A DNA stretch of 64,000 nucleotides from a virus. Of this stretch, positions 8,639-44,633 are shown piece by piece (within the stretch, counting starts at the first letter, position 1; each line of letters begins with the position of its first letter). Below the pieces are notes generated by a model that saw only the letters and a list, made by a program, of their open reading frames with translations, was not told the DNA's origin and did not search any database. Where the stretch lies: IMG/VR virus record IMGVR_UViG_3300025288_000012, positions 96,001-160,000 of that record; one strand, written 5' to 3'. The position numbers and the translations under genes were made by a program.

Positions 8639-11209
8639 ATGGCAACCAGATCATCTTACAACGAAGATTCAATTCAGCATCACAAGGGTCTTGAAGGCTG
8701 CCGTAAAAGGCCTGGGATGTATCTCGGTGAACGTGGTGACCACATGGTGTTCACCTTAGTCAAAGAGCTAGTTGATAACTCCTTCGATGAATTCCTTGCC
8801 AAACGCAACTCGGCAATTGAAGTCTGGGCAGACTCTGCAAGCAACACCTATATCGTGGCTGACTCCGCCGAAGGTATCCCTGTAGGTTTGCACAAGAAGG
8901 CTGGCATCAGCACGCTGACGCTGATCTTCACTGAGCTTCATGCTGGTGGTAAGTTCAACAACTCAGCATACACAGCTTCGAGTGGATGTTTCACTGGTGA
9001 CACCCGTGTATTTACCTTAGATGGAATGCACCCCAGCTTTGAGAAGCTATGGGAAAAATGGAAGCATGATCCAACTCCCTTTTATGTTTTGAGCCGTGAT
9101 GATGAAGGGAGATTGGTACCGCGAAAATGCTACCACGTACAAAAATCTAAGATCGTAAATGAGATTGCCCGGGTTCATTTGTCCTCTGGTGCTGTTATCT
9201 CGTGTACCTTAGATCACCCCTTCTATCTAAGTGACGGCTCAGTTGTTCAGGCTAAAAACTTAAGTAAGCATGAGAGTCTGGACTCTCTTCACTGGGAGTA
9301 CGACTCTGATGGGTACATAGTATCAAATAGGTTCAGACAGAATTTTGGTGTAAGAAATTTGCACCGGGTTGTAGCTAAGACTATTCTGGGTGCACAAGTC
9401 GAAGGTCTTCATGTTCATCATAAAGACGAAGTTGTGGATAACAATGTTCCTTCAAACCTGAAGCCACTATCACCACACGACCACTACAAGGAGCACCCCG
9501 AAAAACTTGGTCTAGGATGCAGCACTTCTGCTGCTACTAAGAACGCAGTTGCATTTAATGATACGGTAGACAAAGTTGTTATAGAAAGAGTGGACCCTAC
9601 ACCCGTGTACGGAATTTCAGTTGAGGATTTCCACAACTACGTATTGTTTGAGGGCCCTGTTGTAGGGAACACTCACGGTGTAGGATCGTCAGCAGTCAAT
9701 GCTGTGTGCTCGAAGTTTGAAGTGTGGACTTATCGGGATAAGGCGTGGCATCATCAGGCATTCAGTGAGGGCAAGCCACTGTTTGCAGTGAAGAAAAGTC
9801 CTCCTCCTTCATCTGTAACCTCAAAGCTCCGAACCTGCGGAAAGCTGGGCACGATCATTCGTATCCAGCCTGACCAGTCTATTGTATCCGTAAACAAAGG
9901 CAAGACAAAGGCGGTACTACCACTTAGTGCTACCGCATTGCGCTTGAAGAACTTGGCCTTCTTGAATCGCAACCTGAAGATCACCTTCACTGCAGGAAAG
10001 AAGACTGCAACCTACCTCAACAACGAAGGCATCGTAAAGGTTGTCAAGTCGCGGGTCGCTAAGCAGGAACTTGAGCCACTGGGCAAGCCTTTGGTATTTG
10101 AGAGCGACCAATTGCAGTTCGCCCTTCAATGGACATCGTACACTGAAGACGACGGAATGCAATCCTTCGTTTCGTGTAGCCCGACTCGTGACGGTGGTTC
10201 ACATCAGGATGAATTCTTTGAGGCACTAATAAAGACTCTTGCGGTGTACAAGACGTCTAGGGACAAGTACACGCCTAGGGATGTGCGTAACGGATTGATA
10301 GGGTGCCTGAACTGGAACATGAGCGGTCCTGAATTCTCCTCCCAGGTAAAGGATCGCCTTACGTCAAACCTGAACAAGGGGCTGTTCACTATTGCCTTCA
10401 AAGAGCTAACTGCCTTGTTCGCAGCTAACAAGACACTAGCAAAGCGCATCATCAAACGTGCATCTGAGGCCAAGAAGGCTAAAGAAGAGTTCAAGAAGGT
10501 CATGGACGGCATCAGTAAGGTCAATGCAGCTAAGCGCGGGATCATTCTCCCTAACATCTTGGCAACAGCACGTCGATGCAAACCTTCGGAGCGGGAACTT
10601 TTTCTGGTAGAAGGGGAAAGCGCCAGCGGCACCGCCAAACGGGCACGTAACATCAACTTCCAGGAAGTGCTCCGACTCAATGGTAAGCCTATGAACGCCA
10701 TGCGTAAGCCATTGGCTGCGTTGCTGAAGTCGAAGGCAATTGTAAATATATTGGCGGCCATCGGTTACGATCACAGGCAAGCTGAGCCGCACAAGCACCT
10801 TCGGGTTGAGCGCTTGTACTGCCTAGCCGACGCGGACCCAGATGGTGAGCACATCAACGCTCTTATCCTCACCGTCATTCACAGGTTGTTGCCTCAGCTG
10901 TTTGTCGAGGGACGCGTATTCATCTGTAACGCACCGTTGTTCAGCGCCTATTATAAGGGCCAGCGATATTTCGGTAAGACCCACCAAGAATGCCACCTCC
11001 AGATGCCAAAGGGTACTCCTAAGGATATTGTCACCCGTAGTAAAGGCTGGGGAGAATTGCCGCCGGAAGTGCTGGAGATAATTGCTTTTCACCCAGAGAC
11101 ACGAAACGTCATTAAGCTCAGTCCTCCCAAGGACAAAAAAGAGCAAGCGTTTTACGACCTCATTATGGGTTCGGACACGTCGGGGCGTAAAGCCTTGTTG
11201 GGACTTTGA
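8639..11209 (+). CDS. gyrB: type IIA DNA topoisomerase subunit B (GyrB/ParE-like) containing one intein
   Basis: RKRPGMY, ELVDNSFDE, LHAGGKF, SSG|HGVGSSAVNA, Toprim LFLVEGESA and DADPDGEHI, and KGWGE. About 628 aa after splicing. Confidence 0.92.
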   Translation: MATRSSYNEDSIQHHKGLEGCRKRPGMYLGERGDHMVFTLVKELVDNSFDEFLAKRNSAIEVWADSASNTYIVADSAEGIPVGLHKKAGISTLTLIFTELHAGGKFNNSAYTASSGCFTGDTRVFTLDGMHPSFEKLWEKWKHDPTPFYVLSRDDEGRLVPRKCYHVQKSKIVNEIARVHLSSGAVISCTLDHPFYLSDGSVVQAKNLSKHESLDSLHWEYDSDGYIVSNRFRQNFGVRNLHRVVAKTILGAQVEGLHVHHKDEVVDNNVPSNLKPLSPHDHYKEHPEKLGLGCSTSAATKNAVAFNDTVDKVVIERVDPTPVYGISVEDFHNYVLFEGPVVGNTHGVGSSAVNAVCSKFEVWTYRDKAWHHQAFSEGKPLFAVKKSPPPSSVTSKLRTCGKLGTIIRIQPDQSIVSVNKGKTKAVLPLSATALRLKNLAFLNRNLKITFTAGKKTATYLNNEGIVKVVKSRVAKQELEPLGKPLVFESDQLQFALQWTSYTEDDGMQSFVSCSPTRDGGSHQDEFFEALIKTLAVYKTSRDKYTPRDVRNGLIGCLNWNMSGPEFSSQVKDRLTSNLNKGLFTIAFKELTALFAANKTLAKRIIKRASEAKKAKEEFKKVMDGISKVNAAKRGIILPNILATARRCKPSERELFLVEGESASGTAKRARNINFQEVLRLNGKPMNAMRKPLAALLKSKAIVNILAAIGYDHRQAEPHKHLRVERLYCLADADPDGEHINALILTVIHRLLPQLFVEGRVFICNAPLFSAYYKGQRYFGKTHQECHLQMPKGTPKDIVTRSKGWGELPPEVLEIIAFHPETRNVIKLSPPKDKKEQAFYDLIMGSDTSGRKALLGL
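8987..9670 (+). mobile_element. intein with HNH homing endonuclease (228 aa) in GyrB
   Basis: Starts CFTGDT, has block B CTLDHPF and HNH region HRVVA...VHHKDEVVDNNVPSNL, and ends HNYVLFEGPVVGN followed by +1 Thr. Confidence 0.88.
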
Positions 11210-11232
11210 ACTTCTAACTTTTGGAAACGAAC

Positions 11233-12774
11233 ATGGCAACAAGAACTAAGAAGGTTGCAGGTGTAACAGTTGCGAAGTCTGATGCCTTAGGCATTACACT
11301 TCATCAGACAACTGCTCACTACACGTCAGCCGCAATGAAAAGCTACGGTACAGAAGTAGTCGAGCAACGTGCTATCCCAGATTTTAGGGACGGTTGTAAG
11401 CCCGTACAGCGCATGCTACTGTGGGCCATGTACAAGCTTGGTATACACCACACCTCCGGCTACAAGAAGGCAGCTCGTACAGTCGGTGAGGTCATAGGCA
11501 AGTACCATCCCCACGGAGATGCCAGTGCGTTTCAAGCAATGGTAGGATTAACAGGAACAAAATTCCAAGGTCAAAAGGCTGGATGGGCTACTCGCAATTG
11601 CTCTACCCCTTTGATAGAGGGCCAGGGTAACTGGGGTGACTTCATTGATGCAGCGGCCGCCATGCGCTATGTGGAATGCCGTCTATCAAAGTTCAGTTAC
11701 CTGTATTTATTGGATCCAGACTACTTGGCCGTCATGGACTACGTACCTAACTACGACGACTCCGAAAAAATCCCAGTAGTCTTGCCCGCCAAGATACCCG
11801 TGGTGCTGTTAAATGGCTTCAGCTCTATCGCAGTTGGTGTGGCCGCAGGTTCACCGCCTTTGGCCTTCGAAGGGGTTCTGAAGCTTACAAAAAAGGCGCT
11901 CACTGGCGAGCCTGTCACGTTGAAAGACTGCGTACGCAATCTGAAGTTTGACTATCCTTACGGTGGTGTTTGCCTTACTGAACCCCGTGACCTCGTTCCT
12001 GTGTTCAAAGGCAAGGGCAGTGCATCGTTCATGCCAGCTTACGATCTCGACGAAGCGAAGAAGACATTGACCTTCGTGGACGTGTGTCCAGGTTTAATGA
12101 GCTCCGGTTCAGTCAGCAATTGGCTTGAGAAGATGGTAAGTCTTAAGACAGTATCTACTGTAGATGACGATACTGGAAAGCTAGGTGCTCGTTACACTGT
12201 AGTGTTCAATCGCTCCTTGTCTGGATCAGCTCTAGATGCTGCCATTGACGAATGCCTTGATCTCTCGGTTCGATCGGACTCCTACGACATTGGTGTGACC
12301 ATAAGGGACACCGTGGGCAGAGCCTCATTCCGTCGTGCGTCCATACCCGACGTGTTCAATATGTGGGCAGAGTGGCGCATTCAGGTTGAAGTGAAAGTCC
12401 TGGACAGGCTGATTTCTATCCAGGATCAGCTGAAGGCGCGACAAGAGCTATTGTTGCTGGCTGTTGAGAACCTGGACACGATCATCAAAGCCTTGAGGGT
12501 CAAGCAAGACAAAGTAGTTCTCCTGATAGGTGGTGTTGAGAAAGAGGTTGATGCAAGTGCACACTTCCTTATGAAGGCACTTAAGATCACACTGGAGCAG
12601 GCCAACTCGATCTTGGACATGAAGGTTCGTCAGTTGAGAAGCATGGAGAAGAGCCGCATACTGGCAAAGATAAAAGAGCACAATCTCAGCATCAAGTCTT
12701 TGAAGGCCTATCTAAGGGCACCCCACACCCGTGTCATTGAAGACCTCGACAACCTTCAGAAAATTGAGTTCTAA
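11233..12774 (+). CDS. gyrA: type IIA DNA topoisomerase subunit A (GyrA/ParC-like), without a C-terminal pinwheel domain
   Basis: RAIPDFRDGCKPVQR, GKYHPHGD, GQGNWG, catalytic AAAMRY and P..LLNG. About 513 aa. Confidence 0.92.
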   Translation: MATRTKKVAGVTVAKSDALGITLHQTTAHYTSAAMKSYGTEVVEQRAIPDFRDGCKPVQRMLLWAMYKLGIHHTSGYKKAARTVGEVIGKYHPHGDASAFQAMVGLTGTKFQGQKAGWATRNCSTPLIEGQGNWGDFIDAAAAMRYVECRLSKFSYLYLLDPDYLAVMDYVPNYDDSEKIPVVLPAKIPVVLLNGFSSIAVGVAAGSPPLAFEGVLKLTKKALTGEPVTLKDCVRNLKFDYPYGGVCLTEPRDLVPVFKGKGSASFMPAYDLDEAKKTLTFVDVCPGLMSSGSVSNWLEKMVSLKTVSTVDDDTGKLGARYTVVFNRSLSGSALDAAIDECLDLSVRSDSYDIGVTIRDTVGRASFRRASIPDVFNMWAEWRIQVEVKVLDRLISIQDQLKARQELLLLAVENLDTIIKALRVKQDKVVLLIGGVEKEVDASAHFLMKALKITLEQANSILDMKVRQLRSMEKSRILAKIKEHNLSIKSLKAYLRAPHTRVIEDLDNLQKIEF

Positions 12775-27106: not shown

Positions 27107-27388
27107 ATGCCTACTAAACTTAAGGTATCATTGCAGCAAGTTCGAGGCGAGACCAAGTCCGCTGGGATGTTGGACGAAGCTGCCATTGCTGCTACAAAAG
27201 TGTTCAATCCCTTAGAGGAACTTGCGAAAACTGGGGCATTTAAGTCTGAGTCTGCAGTTCACAACGCTATGGTCGGTGTGTGTCCCAAATGTTCAGCACC
27301 CATGACTCAAGCAAAGATCGCTAACGGCGATGATGTTTTCTGGTGCGCAACTTGCTGTGTAACCTCTCCGAAGCCGAACAATGTTTAG
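27107..27388 (+). CDS. small Zn-ribbon protein
   Basis: CPKC ... CATC. AGGAG RBS. Confidence 0.7.
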   Translation: MPTKLKVSLQQVRGETKSAGMLDEAAIAATKVFNPLEELAKTGAFKSESAVHNAMVGVCPKCSAPMTQAKIANGDDVFWCATCCVTSPKPNNV

Positions 27389-29228
27389 CATAAACCGAAA
27401 GCCTCAAATTCGATCTGCTCCTCAGCCAGGTAAAAAGTCGACACTTGGCTCTACCTCCAGGCAGAAGTCTGAGTCAGGTAGAATGGAGTCGTTGAGCACA
27501 ATGAGCCCCACAGGCATGCAGAACACGACAGTGTCTTCAAACCCACTGTCTGTTGACTTGTCTCCTATGCTTACAGGCTTTGCCCCGCAGAAAGAAAGTC
27601 AGATGTTCTACCAGTTGTATCGTGACATGTACTACAACGATGCAATTTGTGGGTCAACAGTTGACCTAATGTCCTCAATGCCGTTCAGTGAGTACAGCCT
27701 TGGTGGCGTAAAGGATCTTGGGATCCTTAGGGCGTACACTGAGACGCTTGAGAGACTTAGCCTGCGGTCAATGTTCCCCGAGATTTCTGTTGACTACTTG
27801 GTATTGGGTGTGCACTGCTCTTCGCTTCTGTACTCCAAGGAGCGCAAGGTCTTCATCGACACTATGCCCCATGCTGTGGAAAACATGACTGTGCAGACGC
27901 TGCCCTTCTACAGCCAGGACCCTCTCATAACGGTTAAGTTTCCAAGAGAAGTCCAAAACCTGTTCGCTCCGAAGTCCGGTGAATCCAATAGCCGGATAGA
28001 GCGGTTGCGTTCGCTAGTTGGTAATACTGTCATAGAGAAGATAGCCTCAGGTTCGTTGGAGCTCGACCCACTGAGTACGTTGTATCTTCCGCGTAAGTCA
28101 TTCACTAACACCGACTTTGGAACCTCGTATTTCCGTCGAGTGCTGCCTATATACCTTATAGAAAAGAACCTGTACCGTGGTACGCTAATTGAGTCTGCTA
28201 GGCGTCAACGTGGCATTCTCCACCTTACACTGGGTGACGGTGACACGTGGGAACCTACTATCGCCGATATGGAGTACATGACTGAACTGTTCATGAACGC
28301 TGACAGTGACCCTCTAGGTGCGATAATTGCCACCCGTATGGGTGTTGAGGTTGGTGAACTACGTTCAGGTGGTGAGTTCTGGAAAGTTACTGACTTCGCT
28401 GACTCAGTAGTGTCATACAAGCTCAGAGCACTAGGTGTAAGCGAATCCTTCCTTTCTGGTGATGCCTCGTACAACACTGCCGACAATGGCCTATCTGTGT
28501 TCATCGACCAGATACGGTCTTATCGGGAGATGATGACCCGTAAGCTGTTCTATGATAAGCTGTTCCCACTTGTTGCACTTATCAATGGGTACACACTGAA
28601 CTCTAAAGGTAAGATATCAATCAAGGAGAATTTGCTTGATACGTTGTCTCCTGAAGAGGCTTTGTTCACACTGAACGATGGCTCTAGACTTTTGATACCT
28701 CAAGTGTCTTGGGCTAAAAACCTGAAACCTGAAGGTGACTCGCAGTACATGGAAGTTCTAACCACTCTGGCCGACAAGGGTATTCCTGTACCATTGCGTG
28801 TTCTTGCTGCTGCAGGTGGCCTGAACTTGGAAGAACTAATTCGCCAGAAGGAAGATGACCTTCAGAATCGCAAGTTGCTGTCGGAGTATTCAAAGCTCAT
28901 TGCAGATCTTAGCCCAAAGCCTGCTGAAGGAGGGGACGAAGAAATGGAAGCCTCTGCCACTGCATTGGCTTCAGCGCTTGCTTCCGTAGCACCTGGTCGT
29001 AGGACGAAGTCGGCACTGCTAGCTAGCGGAGGAAGAGTCCCACTGTTGTCTAGAGAGTTTGGTGAGACCGGCGAAATCAAGGACAAGTCAAAGACTGGTA
29101 AGTCCAAGTTCGTTCGGGATCAAAAATCTGCCAACGACCGCATCAACCGTAACATCGCAAAAGCTTTGAGAAACGCAAACTCCAATGGTAAATTTGGAGT
29201 ACAGACTGTACAAAGGAAATCACCGTGA
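27381..29228 (+). CDS. probable portal protein
   Basis: About 600-aa ORF directly downstream of terL and upstream of head genes. Assignment rests mainly on position and size. Confidence 0.6.
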   Translation: MFSINRKPQIRSAPQPGKKSTLGSTSRQKSESGRMESLSTMSPTGMQNTTVSSNPLSVDLSPMLTGFAPQKESQMFYQLYRDMYYNDAICGSTVDLMSSMPFSEYSLGGVKDLGILRAYTETLERLSLRSMFPEISVDYLVLGVHCSSLLYSKERKVFIDTMPHAVENMTVQTLPFYSQDPLITVKFPREVQNLFAPKSGESNSRIERLRSLVGNTVIEKIASGSLELDPLSTLYLPRKSFTNTDFGTSYFRRVLPIYLIEKNLYRGTLIESARRQRGILHLTLGDGDTWEPTIADMEYMTELFMNADSDPLGAIIATRMGVEVGELRSGGEFWKVTDFADSVVSYKLRALGVSESFLSGDASYNTADNGLSVFIDQIRSYREMMTRKLFYDKLFPLVALINGYTLNSKGKISIKENLLDTLSPEEALFTLNDGSRLLIPQVSWAKNLKPEGDSQYMEVLTTLADKGIPVPLRVLAAAGGLNLEELIRQKEDDLQNRKLLSEYSKLIADLSPKPAEGGDEEMEASATALASALASVAPGRRTKSALLASGGRVPLLSREFGETGEIKDKSKTGKSKFVRDQKSANDRINRNIAKALRNANSNGKFGVQTVQRKSP

Positions 29229-30237: not shown

Positions 30238-30389
30238 TCTACTGTCTGTGCGTACCTCAATACGTACCAGCACCCGAGATACGGTATGTGCCAGTTTCGG
30301 GACCAGTTCCATATTTTGTACCAACACCAGTCGAGGAAATTCCCGGTGTTAAGGTTCCCACAATGTACATCGAAAGTCGCTCCATATGA
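30234..30389 (+). CDS. 51-aa Pro/Val/Tyr-rich ORF missed by the ORF track (MIYCLCVPQYVPAPEIRYVPVSGPVPY...)
   Basis: ATGA overlaps with both the upstream stop and the ligase start, filling the gap exactly. Confidence 0.55.
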   Translation: MIYCLCVPQYVPAPEIRYVPVSGPVPYFVPTPVEEIPGVKVPTMYIESRSI

Positions 30390-32365
30390 AACTCATGATA
30401 GCTTTGGACCAGGTTAGTCAGTCTGCCGCTGTTAAGCTTGACAAACGTGACGTAGCTCGTATCGAGAAGGACCCTGCTGGTCTTGCAGCACAGCTGTATC
30501 TTACTGACCTAGTAGGCATACTCAAGCAGTGCTCTGATCGTTACTACAATGACGGTACTAGCCTGTTGTCAGACAGGGCGTTTGACGCACTAAAGGACGA
30601 GCTGCAGGTAAGAAATCCTGCGCATCCCTTCCTGAATCAAATTGGCGCCCCAGTTGCCAAAGGAAGTCGGAAGGTACCACTACCTTATGCGCTGTTTAGT
30701 CTGGACAAGGTGAAAGCTGATACCGTAGCAAAGTGGACTACCCCTAAGAAGGGTCCTTACGTAGTTTCGGACAAGGAAGACGGGAACTCCTTAGAAATAG
30801 TGTACAAGTCTGGAGGTGTGAGCATCTACACCCGAGGTGATGGAGTTAAAGGGCAGGACGTTACCTTCCTTGCTCCTCATTTGGACATTCCTCAGGCTAT
30901 ACCATCAGGAAAAGTTCTTGCAGTTCGTGCAGAGGCCATAATTCCCAATGCCGCGTTCAAGAAATACTTCACAGGTGCATACCGCAACCCTCGCAATCTT
31001 GTTGCGGGTGCTATGAACAAACGTTCCGTACACGAGTCCCTACCGCACATACACGTCATTGCCTACGAGATCATAGAGCCTCGTATGAAGCCTTCGGCAG
31101 CATTAGCGAAGCTGAAACAATATGGATTCAACGTGGTACCTTACAAGGTGTACAACACACTAAGTGTTGCCATGCTAAGTAAGCTCCTGGCCACTCGCAA
31201 GGCACGTTCTAAGTACGACATTGACGGACTTGTTATTGAACAAGACCAGCTGAACCGTAGGCCTAGTGCAGGCAACAATCCAGGCTACGCAGTCGCGTTC
31301 AAAGAAGCCGATGAAAACCAGATGCACGACACCAAGGTAATTGAAGTGCAGTGGGAAGCCTCAAAGCTTGGAGCACTAAAGCCCGTCCTACGCATCCAAC
31401 CTGTAGAGCTTCCGGGCAACACAATAAACTACGTTACTGGTCACAACGCCTTCTTCATTGAGCATGGATACCGCAGCAAAGACAAGCTGAAGGGAATGCC
31501 CGTTAAACCGATCGGTCCAGGTGCGGTAGTAAAGATCATTCGTAGTGGTGACGTTATACCCCACGTGGTAGAGGTAGTAAAGGGTTGTACCAAGCCTCAG
31601 ATGCCCGACGAGCCATACAAGTATGGTCGCACTGGCATAGACATATACCAGACAGTGACCTCTGATCTAACCAAAGAGAAGCTCATAACTTCGTTCTTCG
31701 TTACAGTAGGTGTGGAGTACATGAAGCTCAACACTGTGCAGAAGCTAGTTCAGAACGGTTTCAATAGCATACCGAAGATCCTTCGTGCTAAAGCAGCCGA
31801 CTTCCTAGTCATACCTGGTTTCAAAGCCACGTTAGCGAACAAGCTTTACGCTGCCATTCAAGCAAAGACACGCGAAGTAGAACTCCACACCTTGATGGAT
31901 GCCTCAGGTGTGTTCGGTGCAGGTCTAGGAGAGAAGCGGCTAAAGCCTCTTATAGAGACCTTCCCCAATATTCTGACCTGGGTTAATCTAAAGCCTTCCT
32001 ATATAGAAGAGCGAGTTAAGACCGTTCGAGGTTTTAACCAGACTGCAGCACAGTTCGCCGTTGGATTCCCGAAGTTTCTGAAATGGCTTGCCACTACTCG
32101 TATCAAGCCTATACTGCCCGCAAAGATCAAAAAGACAGGCACTATCCTGCAAGGTCACACCGTAGTATTCACGGGAATCCGTGTTCCTGACCTGGAAACA
32201 ACCATAATTTCTAATGGTGGAAAGATAGGGTCTGGCGTCAATTCTACGACGACTATTCTGATAGCCAAAGATCCTAATGAGAACAGTGCCAAGCTTAGAA
32301 AAGCAGCTGACCTAGGGATATCCATCATGACCGTGGATAAGTTCAAATCGAAGTTTAAGGTGTAA
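30386..32365 (+). CDS. ligA: NAD+-dependent DNA ligase (Ia, adenylation, OB, HhH and BRCT domains; no Zn finger)
   Basis: Domain Ia YYNDGTSLLSDRAFDAL, motif I KEDG, YTRGDG, RNPRNLVAG, DIDGLVI, IIRSGDVIP and BRCT TVVFTG. No CPxC after the OB fold. Confidence 0.93.
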   Translation: MKLMIALDQVSQSAAVKLDKRDVARIEKDPAGLAAQLYLTDLVGILKQCSDRYYNDGTSLLSDRAFDALKDELQVRNPAHPFLNQIGAPVAKGSRKVPLPYALFSLDKVKADTVAKWTTPKKGPYVVSDKEDGNSLEIVYKSGGVSIYTRGDGVKGQDVTFLAPHLDIPQAIPSGKVLAVRAEAIIPNAAFKKYFTGAYRNPRNLVAGAMNKRSVHESLPHIHVIAYEIIEPRMKPSAALAKLKQYGFNVVPYKVYNTLSVAMLSKLLATRKARSKYDIDGLVIEQDQLNRRPSAGNNPGYAVAFKEADENQMHDTKVIEVQWEASKLGALKPVLRIQPVELPGNTINYVTGHNAFFIEHGYRSKDKLKGMPVKPIGPGAVVKIIRSGDVIPHVVEVVKGCTKPQMPDEPYKYGRTGIDIYQTVTSDLTKEKLITSFFVTVGVEYMKLNTVQKLVQNGFNSIPKILRAKAADFLVIPGFKATLANKLYAAIQAKTREVELHTLMDASGVFGAGLGEKRLKPLIETFPNILTWVNLKPSYIEERVKTVRGFNQTAAQFAVGFPKFLKWLATTRIKPILPAKIKKTGTILQGHTVVFTGIRVPDLETTIISNGGKIGSGVNSTTTILIAKDPNENSAKLRKAADLGISIMTVDKFKSKFKV

Positions 32366-32367
32366 CC

Positions 32368-32931
32368 ATGAAAATCAAAGTGTTCATGTCAACTTCTGAG
32401 GAAATGACACTAGCTAGTGCATACCGCAAGTTTTTAGCGGCTAGTAAGCTTGCTGCTGGTGCTCTTAAAAGCCCTACATTGGCAGACCAGTACCATGTAG
32501 CGATAGTGAGAGACCTATACCATTTCTTGACTGACAACGACTTTACCTGTGATGTTCTGCTGGGAATGGGGTTCAAGAAACCTCTGGTAAATGCAGCCAA
32601 GAGCATAACGGAAGACCTTGAGGATCATGGCTACTCTGTAGTTGCGGACCACTTGGAACACGCTGTGGTGAAGGTCAATCAGCTCATTATTGACCCTTCG
32701 TATTCCCGACTGGGTACGTCGTATGAGACGCGGGATAACTACCCTGTACGTGACTTCTATAACTATTGGGAGTTAGTAAAGCCTATCAAGCACTTGCTTG
32801 ACTTGACCCCGCTGGCACTCGCAGACCGAATCAAAAACATGCAAGAACCAGCTCATGCCTCTACGCTTCTGAAGAGCAAAAAGAAGAAAGCTAAGCGTAC
32901 ACTAGTCATCAACATTCAGAAGTCAAACTAA
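32368..32931 (+). CDS. hypothetical protein with shared N-terminal motif (MKIKVFMSTS)
   Basis: 187-aa ORF 2 nt after the ligase stop. Confidence 0.75.
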   Translation: MKIKVFMSTSEEMTLASAYRKFLAASKLAAGALKSPTLADQYHVAIVRDLYHFLTDNDFTCDVLLGMGFKKPLVNAAKSITEDLEDHGYSVVADHLEHAVVKVNQLIIDPSYSRLGTSYETRDNYPVRDFYNYWELVKPIKHLLDLTPLALADRIKNMQEPAHASTLLKSKKKKAKRTLVINIQKSN

Positions 32932-32949
32932 TCATCATCCGAGGCTCGC

Positions 32950-34578
32950 ATGAAACTTTTCTTCAACAGTCTATCAGCGTCAGACGAAAGCGTAGATGCT
33001 TTCCTGTATGTACTTATAGTCATCATACTTGCGGTAAACAAGAACGACGTACAGGAGTTCACTAAAGGTCTTACGGCTAAAATGCACAAGGCAAATGACC
33101 TTCTGCGTCAGCACGGTGCTCACAAGTCTACCGTAAAGTACTTCAACAAGTTCCTTCTTACCAAGAGTCTTTCTGATGCCGAGGCTGCGGAACTGGGTAA
33201 GACACTGAAGACCTTCAAGGTGTCATTCACCCGTGACGTTTCTATTGACTTGTCCCACTTAGACTTGTTGAATGCTTGTATCCAGAACCTATCAACTGAT
33301 TCTGAAGCTGCATGGCGTAAGATAGAGCGAGATGTCAAGATCCTCAACAACGCTGACCTTACTTCGGTCTTCACAACTGAGTCAACCATTGAAGTACAGG
33401 GTATCACCTATATTACGGCAGCATCCCGGATAAAGCCGCTAGTAAAGAAACTCAGTGGTAAGCTGGACACAGTGTTCCTTACTATTGCAGAGGCTCAGGC
33501 AGCCCGAGCTGCTCAACCTGAAGTGTACGCGGAGTACACTAAGCTCCTTAAGGTTATAAACCAGACCGTCAAGCACGAGATCTTTACGTTTGTTCGCAAA
33601 AAGAAGCAATCACTTGTGGACGTAGACGTAGTACGGTCGCATCTCGAATCGCTGAAGATGCCAAACAACTTACCCCGGGGTTTCGTGGGTGGTCAAGTAG
33701 ACGAATCAGGCAAGTTCTACACGGCCGAAGGACGCATGCTGGACAAAGTCCCAAGTGGTATGGTTGTTATGAATCCAAAGTATGATCCTGCTACGGATAA
33801 CACTTATGCCTTCACCACCAGTGAAGGCATACGCTACCGTACTCAGACGTTCTTGTCTAACAACAAGAAGGCTCGGCACAGCGTAGTGCGCGAGTTCATG
33901 CAGAATGAAGAAGAGCATCGTACCAGGTGGCGCCTAGACCTGACGAAAAAAGGTTCCGAAGAACAGGTACTTGCAGCCATGGTTGAGCTACTCTACACAA
34001 CTTCTGCTCGTATTGGTGGAAAGGACAACGCTACTGCAGGTGAACCCACCTATGGTCTGAGTACCTTGCAAGTTGCATGGGTAAAGATGACCCCAACAAA
34101 GATAATCTTGGACTACACGGGAAAGAAACTGGCAAACCAGTACGTCGAGTACAAGGTTAACACACCGACTGCGAAGAAGGTGCAGGAGATCATCAGAGCT
34201 CAATTGGATCGTAAGACTCCCGAGTCCATGCTGTTTACGTTCAATCATCGCCATTTGAGCAGACAACGGGTCGCTGCCTACCTAAAGACATTGGGCATAC
34301 AGCTTACTCCTCACTCCTTCCGCCGCATTACAGGAACGAAACTAGCCGAGTCAATATTGGCCAAGGCTCCTTTCAAAGCTTCTGCTTATCCAAAGCAGGC
34401 TGAAGTTGAGAAGTGGTTCAAAGATGCCGCACTAAAGATCGGTGAAGCATTGCATCACCGTAGTGGGGAGAAGGTTACATCCGCTACTGCCATCAAGTCT
34501 TATATTGACCCACAAGTCATCGAAGACTATTTCGTCGGCCTAGGACTTCGTCGTCCCAAATGGCTACCCACCAAGTAA
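32950..34578 (+). CDS. type IB DNA topoisomerase-like protein (tyrosine-recombinase fold) with long N-terminal extension
   Basis: Catalytic pentad in order: SARIGG (Arg codon 34009), YGLSTL, YTGKK, LF..., VAAYLK, HSFRR, ALHH and KSYIDP (Tyr codon 34501). Spacing matches poxviral/bacterial Topo IB. Confidence 0.8.
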   Translation: MKLFFNSLSASDESVDAFLYVLIVIILAVNKNDVQEFTKGLTAKMHKANDLLRQHGAHKSTVKYFNKFLLTKSLSDAEAAELGKTLKTFKVSFTRDVSIDLSHLDLLNACIQNLSTDSEAAWRKIERDVKILNNADLTSVFTTESTIEVQGITYITAASRIKPLVKKLSGKLDTVFLTIAEAQAARAAQPEVYAEYTKLLKVINQTVKHEIFTFVRKKKQSLVDVDVVRSHLESLKMPNNLPRGFVGGQVDESGKFYTAEGRMLDKVPSGMVVMNPKYDPATDNTYAFTTSEGIRYRTQTFLSNNKKARHSVVREFMQNEEEHRTRWRLDLTKKGSEEQVLAAMVELLYTTSARIGGKDNATAGEPTYGLSTLQVAWVKMTPTKIILDYTGKKLANQYVEYKVNTPTAKKVQEIIRAQLDRKTPESMLFTFNHRHLSRQRVAAYLKTLGIQLTPHSFRRITGTKLAESILAKAPFKASAYPKQAEVEKWFKDAALKIGEALHHRSGEKVTSATAIKSYIDPQVIEDYFVGLGLRRPKWLPTK

Positions 34579-35042
34579 ATCTAAAGGAAATACCATGAAA
34601 GTCCTAGTTAGTTTGTCTACCTTTGTTTTTGCTATGAACGATCCTGATATAGAGGTAATGAAAAACCCAAAAGCAACCACAGCAGCGCTTATGAAGGGCA
34701 TTCAAAGCAAAAATCCCATGGTGAGAAGGGCAGTCATGCGAAACCCCAATGCAACTGCCGAAATCATATCCAAGGGCCTGACTGACCAGTACGCAGTAGT
34801 TCGTGCAGCTGCCTTTAAGAGTCCCAAGGTCACAGTTGCACAACTGCTCAAAGGCATTAAGGACAAGGACAAGGCCGTTCGTCTAGCCGTTGTTAGTAAC
34901 CCTAAAGCCACTACCGAGATTCTGGAGCAAGGTTCCACTGACAAGGGCGCACGAGTCAAAAAGGAGTCTTTGCAAAAGTTGAAAAGCACTAAAAAGTAAT
35001 CTTTGCCTACCCATCAAGTAAATCTAAAGGAAATACCATGAA
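34564..35042 (+). repeat. 36-bp direct repeats (34564-34599 and 35007-35042) flanking the LRV-repeat gene
   Basis: CTACCCA(C/T)CAAGTAAATCTAAAGGAAATACCATGAA, one mismatch. Confidence 0.9.
34595..34999 (+). CDS. LRV/HEAT-like repeat protein with shared N-terminal motif (MKVLVSLST)
   Basis: About four 24-aa repeats of the type NPxAT.ei...g..D....VR.A. Confidence 0.75.
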   Translation: MKVLVSLSTFVFAMNDPDIEVMKNPKATTAALMKGIQSKNPMVRRAVMRNPNATAEIISKGLTDQYAVVRAAAFKSPKVTVAQLLKGIKDKDKAVRLAVVSNPKATTEILEQGSTDKGARVKKESLQKLKSTKK

Positions 35043-35118
35043 GTCTGGACGCGGTGACTGGAAACGCCAGAAGAGCAAGCTCCTCTGATTGCAGCCACTC
35101 TTAACCTAAGGAACCCTC

Positions 35119-35340
35119 ATGAAAGCCATCATTCATACCAGTCTGTCCCGCAAGCGTTCGCACAAGTCTCCCCGGTCTAGCTTCATGTCTATGTTGATGA
35201 CCAAGCTGGGTGGAGACCCGGGTAACGCAATTGCCGACGCCTTCGTTAAACCTGATCCCGAGAAGTTCAAAGAACTGATGGAGGAAGTCGTGAACTCCAT
35301 GGCCAAGTCCATCGGTCGTACGCCGCCTAAGGTTGAATAA
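35119..35340 (+). CDS. small protein with shared N-terminal motif (MKAIIHTSLS)
   Basis: TAAGGA RBS, 73 aa. Confidence 0.7.
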   Translation: MKAIIHTSLSRKRSHKSPRSSFMSMLMTKLGGDPGNAIADAFVKPDPEKFKELMEEVVNSMAKSIGRTPPKVE

Positions 35341-35393
35341 GATGAAGAAGCACAATGATTTCAGTTAACCTTATATAACTTTTGGCCTGGGAC

Positions 35394-35675
35394 ATGAAAC
35401 TTTGGATTTCAACCTCTAGTGTGCAACTAATACCGAGCTCACCCTCGGTATTAACCTTGTTCCACGTACCCAAGTCCTTGCCGTTTCAAGGCTTGCCCTT
35501 CGTTGAAGGAGTAGCTGTATTTGTTCCCCACCAGGTGAACAAGAAGGTACCGGATCACGTCAAGAAGTTGCTCTTCAGCATAAAACCTATTGGCTGGGAC
35601 TACGCACCAGAGGGTTTGACACACCATCAGCTTCCTTACAATGCACGTCTGGGCGTTGTCGAGTTACCACCGTGA
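35394..35675 (+). CDS. hypothetical protein with shared N-terminal motif (MKLWISTSS)
   Basis: GGGA before ATG 35394. The motif match supports this start. Confidence 0.6.
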   Translation: MKLWISTSSVQLIPSSPSVLTLFHVPKSLPFQGLPFVEGVAVFVPHQVNKKVPDHVKKLLFSIKPIGWDYAPEGLTHHQLPYNARLGVVELPP

Positions 35676-36084
35676 AGAAGAAGCAGTAAGTCTTCTGGAA
35701 AAGAACGGGTTCAAGATCAATAAGGTCGAATTGACTGGTCCTCAGTTTCTTGAGCTTAACAAGCCACCAGTGTTTGACAAAGTACCTATTCAACCTGGTC
35801 AAGTAGTGCTGAATCCTAGACTACTGTACCCACGTGCTAGGTTCTTGTGGAGCGCTCACAACAAGAAATTCACTGAGTGGGAACGAACATTCGTTTACAA
35901 CATAGGTGGTCTTCTGAAGGCAGGTAGATCGTTGTCACCTAAGCAGCTCGAACATCTGAATAAGTTGTTCGACAAGTACAAGGTTGCATTAGATGCTGTT
36001 GCCTCAGATGCTCTTGACGCTAGTCTTAAGAAACTGGATCTCTCAAGAGAAGATCTTGCCAAACACCTGCACAAAAGGGTATAG
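35641..36084 (+). CDS. hypothetical protein
   Basis: 147-aa ORF overlapping the upstream ORF by 35 nt. Confidence 0.6.
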   Translation: MHVWALSSYHREEEAVSLLEKNGFKINKVELTGPQFLELNKPPVFDKVPIQPGQVVLNPRLLYPRARFLWSAHNKKFTEWERTFVYNIGGLLKAGRSLSPKQLEHLNKLFDKYKVALDAVASDALDASLKKLDLSREDLAKHLHKRV

Positions 36085-36174
36085 AAATCAAACTTCTACG
36101 TACTTCAAAGTTGTTTGACAAAGGCGTAGCAGCAAATAACATAATTTTTGACAATCGAAAACGTGGGAGTAACC

Positions 36175-36570
36175 ATGAAACTAAAGGTAGCACTGGCAAG
36201 CGTTGGCTTGCCCTCTCCAGAGGTTATGCGTATGTATAACCACATTGTGCCTAAAGGGTTTGAATTTCAACTCATTAACTTCGAGGATACAGTTGAAACT
36301 GGAGAGAACATTCGTGGTTACTTCTACATTAACAGCACTCCAACAGCAGAAGTACTTGGACTGGTGCAGAAAGTTATCATTGCCGCAAAGGCACTTGGCT
36401 TCACTACAGTTTCACGTAAGGTAGGCCTGAATCAGATACTGTACACCTGGTACAAGTCAGATATGGGTAAGTCGTATAGACTGGAACTGTGGCAAAATCT
36501 TAGACAGGATGGGTTGAGTGAACTAGCTCTGTCTCTCGAAGAGTACGTAACCAAACCAAAAGGTATCTAG
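36175..36570 (+). CDS. hypothetical protein with shared N-terminal motif (MKLKVALAS)
   Basis: GGGAG RBS before ATG 36175, downstream of TAATTTT. Confidence 0.7.
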   Translation: MKLKVALASVGLPSPEVMRMYNHIVPKGFEFQLINFEDTVETGENIRGYFYINSTPTAEVLGLVQKVIIAAKALGFTTVSRKVGLNQILYTWYKSDMGKSYRLELWQNLRQDGLSELALSLEEYVTKPKGI

Positions 36571-36572
36571 TC

Positions 36573-37316
36573 ATGGACTTTTCTTCTCAATCCTTTGAAA
36601 TTCGTGGTGGTCCCGTTGTAGAGCTGAACAAGAACAAGTTCGAGGACGTAGTTACGAAGCTCTCCGGTGATTCTGCCCACAGCATTGAGGCCAATACATG
36701 GCTTCCGTTCGCTGCGAAGGAATACAACCTCAGTCCTGATATTCGCGATTACGTACTGGTTCCTGTTCCGGTAATCATCACCGAAATGCCCAACACCAAT
36801 GGAGACTCTGTCACTATCAAGGAGCTGCTGAAGTTCAACCCCGAAATGGGTATGCAGGCATTCAAGACAGCTCGTGGTAAACCGTGTCACCACGAACACG
36901 ACAATCGTGACTACACCAAGGCCAAAGGCGTTATCCTTGATGCCTTCATTCGTCCCATCCGTAGATTCGGTAACAACCGCTACTACAAAGTCATTGAACT
37001 GATGGGTTACGATCGGTCGAAGGATCCGATGCTCGTGAACTCCATTCTAAGTGGTGAGAACAACGCCTACTCTGTTGGATTCTATTACAAGTCCTACACC
37101 TGCTCCGTGTGCGGAAAGACCGTTGGGCAGACCAAGTTCGGTTCTTCTCAGGCGTGCGACCACACTTTCCTGCGTCGCAAACCCTACGCGATGAACGATG
37201 GACGCCTAGCCTATCGTCAATGCCACGACATCCTATTCTTTGAGACGTCAGTTGTAGCTGACCCCGCCTACAAATGTGCAATAGGGCCCCATGTAATGAA
37301 TCCTTCAATTTTGTAA
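36573..37316 (+). CDS. probable prohead (capsid maturation) protease, HK97/assemblin-like fold with Zn insert
   Basis: PNTNGD, GKPCHHEHD (candidate His), AYSVGF (candidate Ser), CSVC..C..C and terminal FETSVVADPA. Upstream of scaffold and capsid genes. Confidence 0.65.
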   Translation: MDFSSQSFEIRGGPVVELNKNKFEDVVTKLSGDSAHSIEANTWLPFAAKEYNLSPDIRDYVLVPVPVIITEMPNTNGDSVTIKELLKFNPEMGMQAFKTARGKPCHHEHDNRDYTKAKGVILDAFIRPIRRFGNNRYYKVIELMGYDRSKDPMLVNSILSGENNAYSVGFYYKSYTCSVCGKTVGQTKFGSSQACDHTFLRRKPYAMNDGRLAYRQCHDILFFETSVVADPAYKCAIGPHVMNPSIL

Positions 37317-38677
37317 AAGGAAAGACCATGAAAACAATTATCAGTATGTATCAGTCCACAAGTGCTGTAGTTCAATCTTAGGAAATCCCCATGAAAATCT
37401 TTATCGCCCTAGCGGCAACAGCCCACTTAAAGGGGGATAGAGTCGTCGTAAAGTTCGGTAATAACCAGTGGTACACTGGGTCTGTCGCCTCTATTGGGAA
37501 GAAAATCACAGTTCTTTTTGACGATGGTGAGAAACACGCTTATGAACTAGGTGACACTTCTGTCAAAGGAATTACCTCGAAGCGTAAGTCTAAGGCAGCA
37601 ATCACTAACGCTGACGCGAAGCTGCTGTACTCTGCACCCGTAGCCACACCAAAGGCACGTACTCCAAGAGCTGCTACCCCGGCCAAAACTGCTGAGCCTA
37701 AGGTACGCACACCTAAGGCAGCTGCCAAGCCTGTTGCCTCAACGCCAGAGGCACCTAAGGCAAACTCTTTCGTTGGATCAGTTGTCAAAAGTACGTTCGG
37801 TCCCATTGTCGTACTCTCCAAGAAGTATGGCCGTAAGTACGCTGAGTTCAAGTGGTCAAAACTTGATAACTCTGGAACGGGATGGCTGAAGTTCCCAGTG
37901 GATGAACGTGACGCTTCGCATTTTGTACGCTTCCCCTTCATTCGTGATGCAACACCTAAGGAAATGTCTGGTGGTCGTCAGAAACTTAGCGAGCGCTATA
38001 CCAGGATAAGCAATGCTCTGCAAGAATCTCGGGACAAGATAAAAAGCCAGAAGATCCAACCAGGTGACGTAGTAAAGGTTACGTACTCTAGCAGTGTAGC
38101 CAATGAGGCCGTTCTAGAAGTTAACTACAGAACGGGTAAGGTTGCTATAGTTCGTAGCTCCGAAGGTGCAGCTTCGTACTACAGCAAGAAGCGCTACCTT
38201 CCTATTCGTCTCTGTGAGAAGATCGCTGACGGTGGTGGAAAGTTCGACCCCAACAATCCCATTTACGCCAAGTACAATATCTACATACCGCAATTCTACA
38301 AGTCAGGAAACACAGTCGCACCCAATCGTAATAAAGCCCGGCACAAGTTGTTTGGACTTAGCTCGAACTTCAACTTTAGCACCTACATGCCACCCGACGT
38401 AGTTGTTGCACTTGAAAAGTCAATAAAAGCAGCAAACGAAGTAGGTAATGCCTCAGCACGAACGTATGCTAACGCTATGGCACAATCTGCCGAAGAATAC
38501 GGAAAGAATGGGTTGTCTCTACAGATATCCTATATGCTGCTTAACTTAGGTTCGTGGAAGGGTGAAGAAGCTCGTGCCGCGAAGAAGATACTTAACAAGT
38601 GGGCAAAGGCCAATTAGGCTACTACGTTCAAAGGAAAGACCATGAAAACAGTTATCAGTATGTATCAGCCCACAAGT
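37316..38677 (+). repeat. 48-bp direct repeats (37316-37363 and 38630-38677) flanking the 408-aa gene
   Basis: AAAGGAAAGACCATGAAAACA(A/G)TTATCAGTATGTATCAG(T/C)CCACAAGT, two mismatches. Confidence 0.9.
37391..38617 (+). CDS. multi-domain basic protein with Tudor/SH3-like barrel(s) and shared N-terminal motif (MKIFIALAA)
   Basis: GDRVVVKFGNNQWYTGSVASIGKKITVLFDDGE, a Pro/Ala/Lys linker, and KOW-like IQPGDVVKV. Confidence 0.7.
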   Translation: MKIFIALAATAHLKGDRVVVKFGNNQWYTGSVASIGKKITVLFDDGEKHAYELGDTSVKGITSKRKSKAAITNADAKLLYSAPVATPKARTPRAATPAKTAEPKVRTPKAAAKPVASTPEAPKANSFVGSVVKSTFGPIVVLSKKYGRKYAEFKWSKLDNSGTGWLKFPVDERDASHFVRFPFIRDATPKEMSGGRQKLSERYTRISNALQESRDKIKSQKIQPGDVVKVTYSSSVANEAVLEVNYRTGKVAIVRSSEGAASYYSKKRYLPIRLCEKIADGGGKFDPNNPIYAKYNIYIPQFYKSGNTVAPNRNKARHKLFGLSSNFNFSTYMPPDVVVALEKSIKAANEVGNASARTYANAMAQSAEEYGKNGLSLQISYMLLNLGSWKGEEARAAKKILNKWAKAN

Positions 38678-38719
38678 TCTGTTACGTGCCCGCAGATTCA
38701 CTACGTAAGTGGAATCCCA

Positions 38720-39157
38720 ATGAAAGTTTTAATCAGTCTCAGTGCTAGTAGTCAAGAGTGGTTTGATGGGTTGCCCAAAAGAGCACAGAAGGAATACCTC
38801 ATCAACAACCCCCGCAGTAAGTTTGGTACCGTACTTGCGGCAGCTCCCAAAAAGCTTGCGGCAGCTCCCAAAAAGCTTGCTCTGCTACCGGTACCAAAAC
38901 TTCGAGACCTATGGAGACCAAGCGGTGAATTTTCGGATGCTGCTAATGAACGGGCTCGTAAAAGTGCACTCGACGAGATCTCTAAGATTAAGGCGGAGAA
39001 CGAAAAACGTAAAGCAACAAATACTAGTACCAGAGCAGTACGTTCCCAATTTCGTACCGAAAATGCCTTAAATGATAAGACTATAGCCACGTTGTCCAAA
39101 AAGCTATATGCCACACTCGGTCCCTCTGTAAGAGACACTCATGGGAAGGCCCTTTGA
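38720..39157 (+). CDS. basic protein with shared N-terminal motif (MKVLISLSA) and WFxxLxxxxQxEYLxxNPxSK segment
   Basis: In-frame upstream ATG 38642 derives from the repeat module. Contains a 21-bp tandem duplication (LAAAPKK x2). Confidence 0.7.
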   Translation: MKVLISLSASSQEWFDGLPKRAQKEYLINNPRSKFGTVLAAAPKKLAAAPKKLALLPVPKLRDLWRPSGEFSDAANERARKSALDEISKIKAENEKRKATNTSTRAVRSQFRTENALNDKTIATLSKKLYATLGPSVRDTHGKAL

Positions 39158-39611
39158 ACTTAAAAAAGGGTGCGAAGGCAGTACCACTGGCTGAGCGGGC
39201 CGCAAAGTCTCCTCTGCTGACTAAAAATCTTCTTGTTCACACGTCCGAGTTGGCTTACGCTAACAAGTCGATTCCACTGGATGAAAGAAAACAAATCCGT
39301 GCACAAATCCGCAACCTTACAGAGTACGGCACAAGAGAACAGCAGACTCAATTCTTGAGCAAGTTTTTGGCTGCCCACCAACGTGTAACACCCTCCGCGT
39401 CTAAGACACGCCCATCAAGGCGGAGGGTGTAGCCACTGAGGCACTGGAAGAAAAGGAGGCCAAAGCCCTGAAGCCTGCTAAGTCTGTTGCCGCACGGGAT
39501 GCCCGGGAGATGTATGTTAGCCTCGCATGCTTTGCCCACTATAAGTTGCGCCTGAAGTACGAAACTGGCCCTGTGGTGCTTAAAAAGCTCAAGGTCACTA
39601 TAGAAAATTGA
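39154..39611 (+). pseudogene. possible frameshifted gene: 92-aa ORF (39154-39432) plus a start-less -1 frame continuing to 39611
   Basis: TTG start with GGAAGG RBS. The -1 frame is open 39405-39611 and encodes similarly basic helical sequence. Confidence 0.35.
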
Positions 39612-39638
39612 GCAAAGACATCGGTCGGTAATCCTATG

Positions 39639-39664
39639 AGGACTCAGAGTACAGAGTCCTTTTG
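39639..39664 (+). terminator. intrinsic terminator
   Basis: AGGACTC-agagtaca-GAGTCCT followed by TTTT. Confidence 0.65.
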
Positions 39665-39968
39665 AAGAGTTTAGTAACTAAGGAAACACCATGAAAACCA
39701 TAGTTAGCAAGTCCCTAAAAGCTATGTCTGCGGGTAAGAAATCACCCACGTGACGCTACTCGTCTTGAAGACATACGGGGTGAGATGGGTGAACTTCTAA
39801 GTGAGGCACGCCCGATAGCCAAAAAGGTGGGTGGCCACACGTATGCCGCGGCCTCCTCTTATTGGATATAGCACACATCGAATCTGCCTTGGGTGCAATG
39901 AGACTTCGAGTCGTCCATCTGCTACTACAATGCAGGACACCCTCAACGAACTACTAGAAGGCCTCAAA

Positions 39969-40448
39969 ATGAAAATCTCTGTTTCTCTATCTGCAGGTGT
40001 GACACTAGACTTCGAGGATCACGACAAGTCGGCAGCACCTATCTTCCACTACGGTGTTCGAGATGGTGTTCGCGTATTCTTCAACAACAACTTCCTGCTC
40101 CGTGCAGAAGGTCCGGTGTCAAAGACTTTCTCTATCCATCATAGAGCAGACTTGATGAAGAACAGGTCATTTGAGCCCTTAGGCACGCTAGACCTAGCGC
40201 AAAACCGGGTGTACAAGATTGAGTTGTTGCCGATCTGGGCGGGCATGGGAATAGCAGAGGAACTTGTAGTCAGTCTTCTGAAGACGTTTAACGAACCCCT
40301 AGCCTTATCACGCCATAGTTGCCTGCAATCAGTACGCAACAACCTAGGCGTGGATGAGTACTTATGGTTAGACAACCTGTCTGAACTGGAAATCCGGGCA
40401 GTTAGCTGTAGGACGAAAGAACGTGTATCTAATTCGTGGTCCGTGTAG
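39969..40448 (+). CDS. hypothetical protein with shared N-terminal motif (MKISVSLSA); possible GNAT-like fold
   Basis: ATG 39969 gives a perfect motif match. LLPIWAGMGIAEELV resembles GNAT motif A. Confidence 0.6.
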   Translation: MKISVSLSAGVTLDFEDHDKSAAPIFHYGVRDGVRVFFNNNFLLRAEGPVSKTFSIHHRADLMKNRSFEPLGTLDLAQNRVYKIELLPIWAGMGIAEELVVSLLKTFNEPLALSRHSCLQSVRNNLGVDEYLWLDNLSELEIRAVSCRTKERVSNSWSV

Positions 40449-43517: not shown

Positions 43518-44633
43518 ATGCGTAAACAAAATCCGTTTGCTGGCGCTCAGCTGGTCCTCAAAAATGGCGACCCCATTTCTGAACTGAAATTCGGCCGTTC
43601 AAGTCAGCGTGCTCTGTCAGCCAATGGCGAGTTCAATGCCAGTGACAAGCAAGACCTGGTTCGTGCTATCACTGCTCTGATGACCTCGGTCAGCTCCGGC
43701 GAGGTTGTGCCTGAGTACAAGTCCGCCGTTGCCTCTTCGGGCGAATACGCTCAGATGGTTCAGGAACGTCGTGAAGTTCTGGCTGCTGCTTATGCTGACT
43801 CCACCGGCGAGAAATGGGCCGCCCTGGGTGCTTCCATCGCTCTGCAACTGCAAGAGCAACGTAACCGCGAAGGCTTTCTGCGTCGCGTCGCCGTTGGCCA
43901 GACCCTGAAGCAAGGTGAGATCCCGCGTATCACCATGCCGTCGTGGGATGCAGTGTCCATCGTTGCAACCAGCTCTGCAAGCGTTGGTTACCAACTGGTT
44001 CGTTCCAAAGTGTTCACCCCTGGTGAATTCGAGATCCTGGCCAACCTCCGTGTTGAAAACCTGGACATCGAACAAGTCTCCGGCGACCTCCTGGACGAAG
44101 CCTACAACCAAGGCCTGGACGCCATCATGGTCGGTGAAGACCGCCTGTGGAAGAAAGCCGCCGACCTGTCGGTTGGTGTTGTCAATCCCCTGAACTACAT
44201 CAGTGGCACCCTGACGACCCAAATGCTGGCAACCATTCGCCAGCAAGTCACCGACTGGAACCTGCCCGCCACCAATGCCATCATCAGTAACGACTTCTGG
44301 TCTGACGTGATCGGCAGCAACGACTTCGCAACCTTCCTTGACCCGGTCAGCAAGTATGACCTGGTCCTGAACGGTTACCTGGGTACGTTGGTTGGTATGA
44401 ACCTGGTTACTGATGCGTTCCGTCAGCCCAACCAGAAGGTTCTGAACCGTGGTGAAATCTACGTCGTGGCCTCCTCGGAGAACCATTCGGCGTACACCGA
44501 TCGTGGTGGTGTTCGTTCCACCCCGACCAGCGGCGCCGACCAAGGCAATACCACGAAGGGCTGGCTCATGTCTGAACTGCTCAGCTTCGTCCTGGCCAAT
44601 CCCCGCTCGGTTTCCAAAGGAAAACGTGTGTAA
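43518..44633 (+). CDS. major capsid protein (HK97 fold expected)
   Basis: 371 aa with the strongest C-ending codon bias in the window and an AGGAG RBS. Follows protease and scaffold genes and precedes a strong terminator. GYLGTLVGMNLVTD resembles the HK97 A-domain G.l.G motif. Confidence 0.8.
   Translation: MRKQNPFAGAQLVLKNGDPISELKFGRSSQRALSANGEFNASDKQDLVRAITALMTSVSSGEVVPEYKSAVASSGEYAQMVQERREVLAAAYADSTGEKWAALGASIALQLQEQRNREGFLRRVAVGQTLKQGEIPRITMPSWDAVSIVATSSASVGYQLVRSKVFTPGEFEILANLRVENLDIEQVSGDLLDEAYNQGLDAIMVGEDRLWKKAADLSVGVVNPLNYISGTLTTQMLATIRQQVTDWNLPATNAIISNDFWSDVIGSNDFATFLDPVSKYDLVLNGYLGTLVGMNLVTDAFRQPNQKVLNRGEIYVVASSENHSAYTDRGGVRSTPTSGADQGNTTKGWLMSELLSFVLANPRSVSKGKRV

Follow-up and report, generated by a model that had tools for sequence, protein, structure and literature searches.

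A leader-bearing type IB topoisomerase encoded in the head-gene cluster of a tailed phage is a candidate virion-delivered DNA relaxase

The 542-aa protein encoded at positions 32950..34578 of the window, by which we mean the whole stretch of 64,000 nucleotides analyzed, is, on the basis of profile matches and predicted fold, a type IB topoisomerase (Topo IB), and we estimate at roughly 0.5 the probability that it is a Topo IB relaxase that is also delivered with the virion. The first-pass annotation, made from the letters alone, had proposed an ATP-independent relaxase of this type, working beside a type IIA enzyme and plausible as virion cargo, a proposal that gains support from the profile, the predicted fold and the shared leader. 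Judged by sequence, the enzyme is the already annotated Topo IB of phiRSL1/Lu11/PaBG-type jumbo phages and is not new. The family is published, but in the literature searched we found no Topo IB clade in which the His II position is occupied by His, no helical Topo IB N-terminal domain of ~230 residues without a solved-structure match, and no phage-specific leader of a jumbo-phage topoisomerase.

The source virus record comprises 190,918 bp and is estimated to be 78% complete. The topoisomerase gene (plus strand, as are all features of the window given below) was preceded by a GAGG ribosome site and encodes a protein of 61 kDa and pI 9.6, with matches to Pfam Topoisom_I (3e-18) and phrog_23460 (6e-102). 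Comparison with an 89% identical relative pointed to purifying selection (dN 0.07, dS ~1.9). The gene lies inside an uninterrupted plus-strand series formed by terminase, the portal protein at the start of the head block (27381..29228; phrog_16240), a NAD-dependent DNA ligase with a leader-like start (30386..32365), the topoisomerase, a prohead protease (36573..37316; phrog_18299), scaffold and the major capsid protein (43518..44633). Ribosome site, selection and neighbors bore out the earlier view of a real ORF in the head-gene cluster. A head gene was found at 10 kb or less from the topoisomerase in 34 of 44 related loci, with none nearby in the other 10. The type IIA topoisomerase that the phage had been said to encode was located at 8639..12774, as a GyrB-like/Toprim subunit with an intein (8639-11209) and a GyrA-like subunit (11221-12774). 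Inteins also occurred in the terminase (three; 21447-27080) and in a DnaB helicase (17597-20185).

In a profile search with the 542-aa protein, Pfam Topoisom_I scored 66.5 bits, well above its cut-off of 23.7, whereas Phage_integrase reached 22.6 bits, below its cut-off of 27.1; a search of NCBIfam gave zero matches. The PDB matches of the family alignment profile at E<0.001 were Topo IBs only, and Foldseek matches of the AlphaFold (AF2) model (pLDDT 90.7) at the same threshold were exclusively Topo IBs. By VIA-align, the closest structures were human Topo I (1a35; Z 24.2, rmsd 3.7, 282 residues aligned, model 220-542 vs. chain 329-754), archaeal Topo IB (6z03; Z 22.2), Deinococcus Topo IB (Z 20.9) and variola Topo IB (3igc; Z 19.3, model 243-534 vs. 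chain 4-289). The best recombinase was XerH (Z 14.8, rmsd 3.5, 181 aligned), followed by Cre (Z ~13), and both alignments began at residue 304. Thus, the model superimposed on the Topo IB catalytic domain with Z values of 19-24, and in the profile and structure comparisons that had been suggested for this protein Topo IB prevailed over the recombinases. The alignment of model residues 220/243-542 with the human and variola cap and core displayed the clamp architecture of a cap beta-domain (aa ~243-303, 33676..33858), the counterpart of the poxviral N-domain and of human core subdomain I, and a catalytic domain (aa 304-542, 33859..34575). Taking the chemistry from the known families, we consider it likely that the protein would relax DNA without ATP. 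Independence from Mg, which had also been put forward, is an unfair criterion for a Topo IB, since the P. aeruginosa enzyme required divalent ions (PMC2666729).

The set of residues typical of type IB enzymes, R-K-R-H/N with a Tyr nucleophile, was present. It consisted of Arg354 (codon start 34009) in the Arg I motif RIGG (34009..34020), Lys392 (34123..34125), Arg458 (codon start 34321) in HSFR (34312..34323), His503 (codon start 34456) and the nucleophile Tyr518 (codon start 34501), the last two spanning 34456..34503 and separated by 15 aa vs. 9 in bacterial-type Topo IB. Arg354, Arg458, His503 and Tyr518 were invariant among 172 homologues, and Lys392 was kept in 169 of them, so that the full R-K-R-H-Y set read earlier from the sequence was recovered residue by residue. 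The substitution of HSFR for the usual KxxR proved equally real and departs from the Topo IB rule: His455 (codon start 34312) occupies the position of vaccinia Lys220 and Cre His289, and the Lys three residues before Arg II, a typical but not strictly conserved Topo IB trait, was absent. The poxviral/bacterial context assigned to these motifs held in part. RIG, YGLSTL, GK, HSFR and SYIDP were all found and YGLSTL is Deinococcus-like, whereas the archaeal and human Topo IBs gave the best overall matches and share the His...SYIDP end.

Orthologues were recovered by tblastn in Lu11, PaBG, NCTB, phiRSL1, Motura, BCSR5 and Xanthomonas and Rhizobium phages, most of them annotated as topoisomerase I/IB, including those of phiRSL1, Lu11, PaBG and Motura, and the family comprised 417 representatives (E up to 1e-30). 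Membership of this phage clade was reflected in near full-length homology, helical N-terminal domain included (TM 0.83 for the PaBG model). The proteins of PHROG 23460, namely phiRSL1 ORF108, Lu11 gp197, PaBG gp84 and those of Motura and NCTB, shared with the present enzyme 27-33% identity over 55-94% of the length and the same architecture; those of RSL1, Lu11 and PaBG likewise have HxxR, and the phiRSL1, Lu11 and PaBG genomes also carry a type IIA enzyme. A phage-specific topoisomerase I has been recorded in subgroup 2.2 jumbo phages, where the account of it by Iyer et al. (2021, PMC7824862) gives, in the part of that source concerned with the enzyme, its existence and no description of the His, the N-terminal domain or the leader. 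No fundamental difference separates the present enzyme from those of subgroup 2.2, and a literature search pairing topoisomerase IB with jumbo phage gave no match. With human (1a35) and archaeal (6z01/6z03) Topo IB, the best structural matches (Z 22-24), the phage enzyme shared the third-site His, the T-x-x-x-[SN]-Y-I-D-P end and the His-Tyr insertion; it differed in having no long linker (15-aa spacing), in the replacement of Lys by His ahead of Arg II and in an N-terminal domain without solved-structure match. With the variola (3igc), vaccinia (1a41) and Deinococcus (2f4q/3m4a) enzymes it had in common the cap and catalytic domain and, for Deinococcus, YGLSTL, in contrast with its ~240 extra N-terminal residues, HxxR, longer His-Tyr spacing and lack of a Top1B_N_bact match.

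The N-terminal extension announced in the first-pass annotation was real but shorter than the ~300 residues given there. Since aa ~243-303 align with the normal Topo IB cap (variola from residue 4, human from ~330), only ~240 residues are extra. They include a family-specific, all-helical domain (aa 11-240, 32980..33669), basic over aa 141-240, which was again all-helical when modelled separately (pLDDT 92). Compared with PDB structures, this domain gave nothing above background (best Z 5.9) and no recombinase was listed; an Atlas shape search returned its own family alone, and an Atlas feature match to Topoisom_I_N at 0.83 serves as a lead only and does not imply novelty of the fold. Almost no residues of the domain were invariant across the 172 homologues, so that it probably serves for binding or as a structural element and not as an enzyme.

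The first ten residues, MKLFFNSLSA (32950..32979), were disordered in the model and constitute a candidate head-loading tag or prohead-protease site. The motif that they share with other proteins, pointed out earlier, was confirmed across genes of the source genome: the pattern M-K-hydrophobic-x-hydrophobic-[SA]-L-[SA] was found at the start of 10 genes and at none of 805 internal Met. In the window, unrelated ORFs with the common leader formed an array (32368..40448) with starts at 32368, 32950, 34595, 35394, 36175, 37391, 38720 and 39969. The start of the ligase carried the leader in close relatives, and in Lu11 the orthologous topoisomerase was surrounded by an MKIQLAVA array of its own. 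Over 44 related loci, a looser pattern matched 182 of 2151 start-proximal Met (8.5%) vs. 44 of 4172 internal Met (1.1%), and the leader was present in 56 of 138 full-length family N-termini vs. 6.9 on average in control windows. The p-values overstate the case, because the patterns were tuned on the source genome and on Lu11 and because the loci are interrelated. The topoisomerase leader was of the locally prevailing type, SLS in the near clade and AVAA/IAAA in the Lu11 clade; such agreement with the dialect of each clade is more in keeping with a signal recognized by some phage factor than with a structural element of the enzyme.

Several observations were compatible with processing in the head. 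Two PaBG virion proteins, gp202 and gp83, begin with leader-like motifs. In the PaBG capsid protein, EAVAAA ends at 20-21% of the mass, matching the reported maturation loss of ~20%. The source capsid protein contained leader-like sites at aa 31-35 and aa 69-74, with SAVASS at the place corresponding to PaBG EAVAAA; the second site (aa 69-74) matched the ~20% loss reported for PaBG. These data are consistent with the leader being a site for the prohead protease, the candidate leader processor, with cleavage deduced from mass only.

The same block contained repeats. Near-identical direct repeats of 39 nt (34561-34599, 35004-35042) flanked a HEAT-repeat gene and others of 53 nt (37316-37368, 38630-38682) flanked a 408-aa gene, in both cases covering stop, ribosome site and leader start, and the gene content of this block varied between close relatives. 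An imperfect inverted repeat of 27 nt (40523-40586), which lies upstream of the scaffold gene and is possibly a terminator or regulatory hairpin, had no match in related loci.

Leader genes of the source genome coded for an Acb1 phosphodiesterase, a PcfJ-like protein and KMPT-N (weak match), and those of Lu11 included an ART-PolyVal domain (weak match). The first, an Acb1-family (anti-CBASS) 2H phosphodiesterase (Pfam 9e-18), lies on the minus strand of the source contig (G000:C1:43386-43895, equivalent to L043:10386-10895); its leader suggests, at the sequence level, a virion-delivered anti-CBASS enzyme. PaBG gp228, a homologue of this protein, also has a leader-like start. The PcfJ-like and KMPT-N (weak) genes formed a second leader-bearing cluster on the minus strand (G000:C1:45974-47875 and 49646-50464), near which a 2753-aa SNF2-type helicase containing an intein was encoded. 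Members of the topoisomerase family were found fused to DarA_C, SprT and ART-PolyVal (weak match) domains, and the family topoisomerase was built into long polyvalent-type proteins or joined to DarA_C or SprT in P0175 (2185 aa), P0020, P0130 and L088:8564-14908. Two relatives encoded, ~5 kb from the family gene, a second Topo IB, of canonical KDFRT type and bearing the same leader (bacterial type with Top1B_N_bact; L048:4529-5491 and L091:14465-15442), which indicates that Topo IB, His-less enzymes included, was recruited to this slot more than once. The N-terminal 35 aa of the L048 enzyme resembled those of the window ORF 38720-39157, and relatives of the second Topo IB were fused to Nudix, Acb1, ART and InPase domains.

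The topoisomerase therefore combines a late/head-cluster gene, a shared tag and cargo-type partners, as expected of virion cargo. In being short, N-terminal and common to several proteins, the tag is reminiscent of the capsid-targeting sequence of T4. P1 DarA and T4 Alt are packaged in the head (PMC5512222), and T4 Alt and other internal proteins, P1 DarA/DarB and polyvalent proteins (Iyer 2017, PMC5512222) share with the present set late-gene context, ART/SprT/DarA-type partners and proteolytic maturation; the candidate set described here differs from them in the sequence of the tag and in consisting mostly of separate single-enzyme genes. Vaccinia Topo IB is encapsidated and serves early transcription, according to the work cited as refs 72-73 in PMC12188299, although the present source, unlike vaccinia, is a tailed phage without evident virion RNA polymerase. 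On these grounds, packaging into the head and cleavage directed by the leader, followed by delivery with the DNA, appears somewhat favored.

The same relaxase might instead act late, in the infected cell or prohead, relieving twist while concatemers are processed, late genes transcribed or DNA packaged, without being delivered to the next host. The position in a late operon near terminase, portal and ligase fits such a use equally, the leader was not recognizable in many family members, and the phiRSL1 gene lies outside the head block, among NAD-salvage genes and ~20 kb from the protease. PaBG gp84 was also missing from 14 virion bands detected at Coomassie level, a low-sensitivity method, and several identified PaBG virion proteins, such as gp191, have no leader. 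However, the leader is common to host-directed Acb1, PcfJ and ART enzymes, which make most sense on entry, DarA_C and ART-PolyVal fusions occur in the family, and a type IIA enzyme is already available for late topology; we thus regard exclusively late use as possible but unlikely. No activity assay was found for any family member.

A delivered relaxase could also be aimed at the host or its defences, relaxing the negatively supercoiled chromosome and so biasing transcription, or protecting or repairing incoming DNA together with the co-tagged NAD ligase. Its company of counter-defence and host-modifying cargo, the ligase leader in close relatives and the extra basic helical domain, which could bind a partner or DNA, would suit this role. 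Nothing points directly to a target, however, the few copies injected would have to contend with host gyrase, and the N-terminal domain has no assignable fold, which makes the idea improbable.

The HxxR motif had led to the suggestion of a hybrid between Topo IB and tyrosine recombinase and of a possible resolvase, with His455 acting as His II in the resolution of genome dimers or Holliday junctions or in recombination at a specific site. The catalytic fold and the order R-K-HxxR-H-Y are indeed shared with Cre, XerC/D/H and lambda Int, integrase matches were obtained below threshold, and at the sequence position of His II the HxxR pattern of tyrosine recombinases was present. According to Gibb et al. 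(2010, PMC2943603), His II and Glu/Asp I are the two residues found in recombinases alone, and the Lys that Topo IB carries at the His II position faces away from the active site. Among the 172 homologues, this position was occupied by His in 153 (89%), Lys in 16, Arg in two and Tyr in one, with KDFR and KVFR members included, in contrast with Lys in 120 of 120 and HxxR in 0 of 120 members of the bacterial-type outgroup, against which the family formed one group with modest support (0.75). The non-His members were scattered over the FastTree tree (14 changes vs. 16-19 with shuffled labels) and several had well-supported His-bearing sisters. Replacement of Cre His289 by Lys or Arg abolishes recombination (PMC2943603), and the repeated passage from His to Lys within the family consequently argues that His455 does not perform the recombinase job. 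Glu/Asp I, three residues after Arg I, was found in only five of the 172 homologues and is Gly357 here. Recombinase alignments started only at residue 304, the domain just before it matched the Topo IB cap, no core-binding domain was among the matches, and Z values for recombinases were much lower.

No lox/dif/tos-like conserved inverted-repeat site was found near the gene in related loci, where a distant or degenerate site could escape, and two hairpins considered as target sites were rejected, one (33805-33831) being broken in the closest relative and the other (35428-35453) having no match in related loci. The contig held no further integrase-like gene, and a pattern-limited scan of 185,579 prokaryote genomes (GTDB) yielded no chromosomal or prophage copy. 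We therefore dropped the hybrid, given the His/Lys lability, the missing Glu/Asp I and the Topo IB-type cap and C-terminus, and hold a resolvase to be quite unlikely. A protelomerase forming hairpin ends, with which superfamily chemistry is shared, seems extremely improbable, as no telomere-resolvase Pfam match appeared at E up to 1, the longest unspaced palindrome in the contig (78% complete) had 11-bp arms with none near the gene, and PaBG is described as circularly permuted. Protelomerases were not among the fold-search matches listed, an absence that does not amount to exclusion. We read the protein as a Topo IB in which His is the residue preferred by the clade at this position. From the homologues, the His looks like a tolerated swap with no new activity; its retention in 89% of members suggests that it is probably selected for something.

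For the preferred reading of a virion-delivered Topo IB relaxase, the following course can be proposed. The topoisomerase would be expressed late, from the head operon; most likely, the leader would guide it to the interior of the prohead and be trimmed off there by the phage protease, and the enzyme would enter the next host together with the ~200+ kb genome. There, cap and catalytic domain would clamp duplex DNA, and Tyr518 would nick one strand via a 3'-phosphotyrosine, allowing the strand to swivel and reseal without ATP, with His455 occupying the non-essential slot of vaccinia Lys220 and conferring no recombinase activity. By analogy, this early role may be the removal of torsional stress during DNA entry and early transcription by host polymerase, before the ATP-dependent type IIA enzyme is made. 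As a broader and tentative proposition, a lineage of tailed phages might package, by means of a phage-specific, protease-cleaved tag, a Topo IB with recombinase-type His II that acts as a swivel at time zero, converging with poxviruses and representing a natural intermediate between the Topo IB and tyrosine-recombinase active sites.

If the enzyme is packaged, a tailed phage would have a counterpart of the topoisomerase that vaccinia carries in its virion, and DNA topology would be shown to be limiting in the opening minutes of infection by jumbo phages; packaging can be tested now, since PaBG and Lu11 are cultured. With His and Lys variants coexisting in one scaffold, the clade also provides a naturally occurring test of the suggestion by Gibb et al. 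(2010, PMC2943603) that recombinases acquired His II as compensation for allosteric control. The leader may provide a route to predicting injected proteins, anti-CBASS Acb1-type enzymes included, across this phage group.
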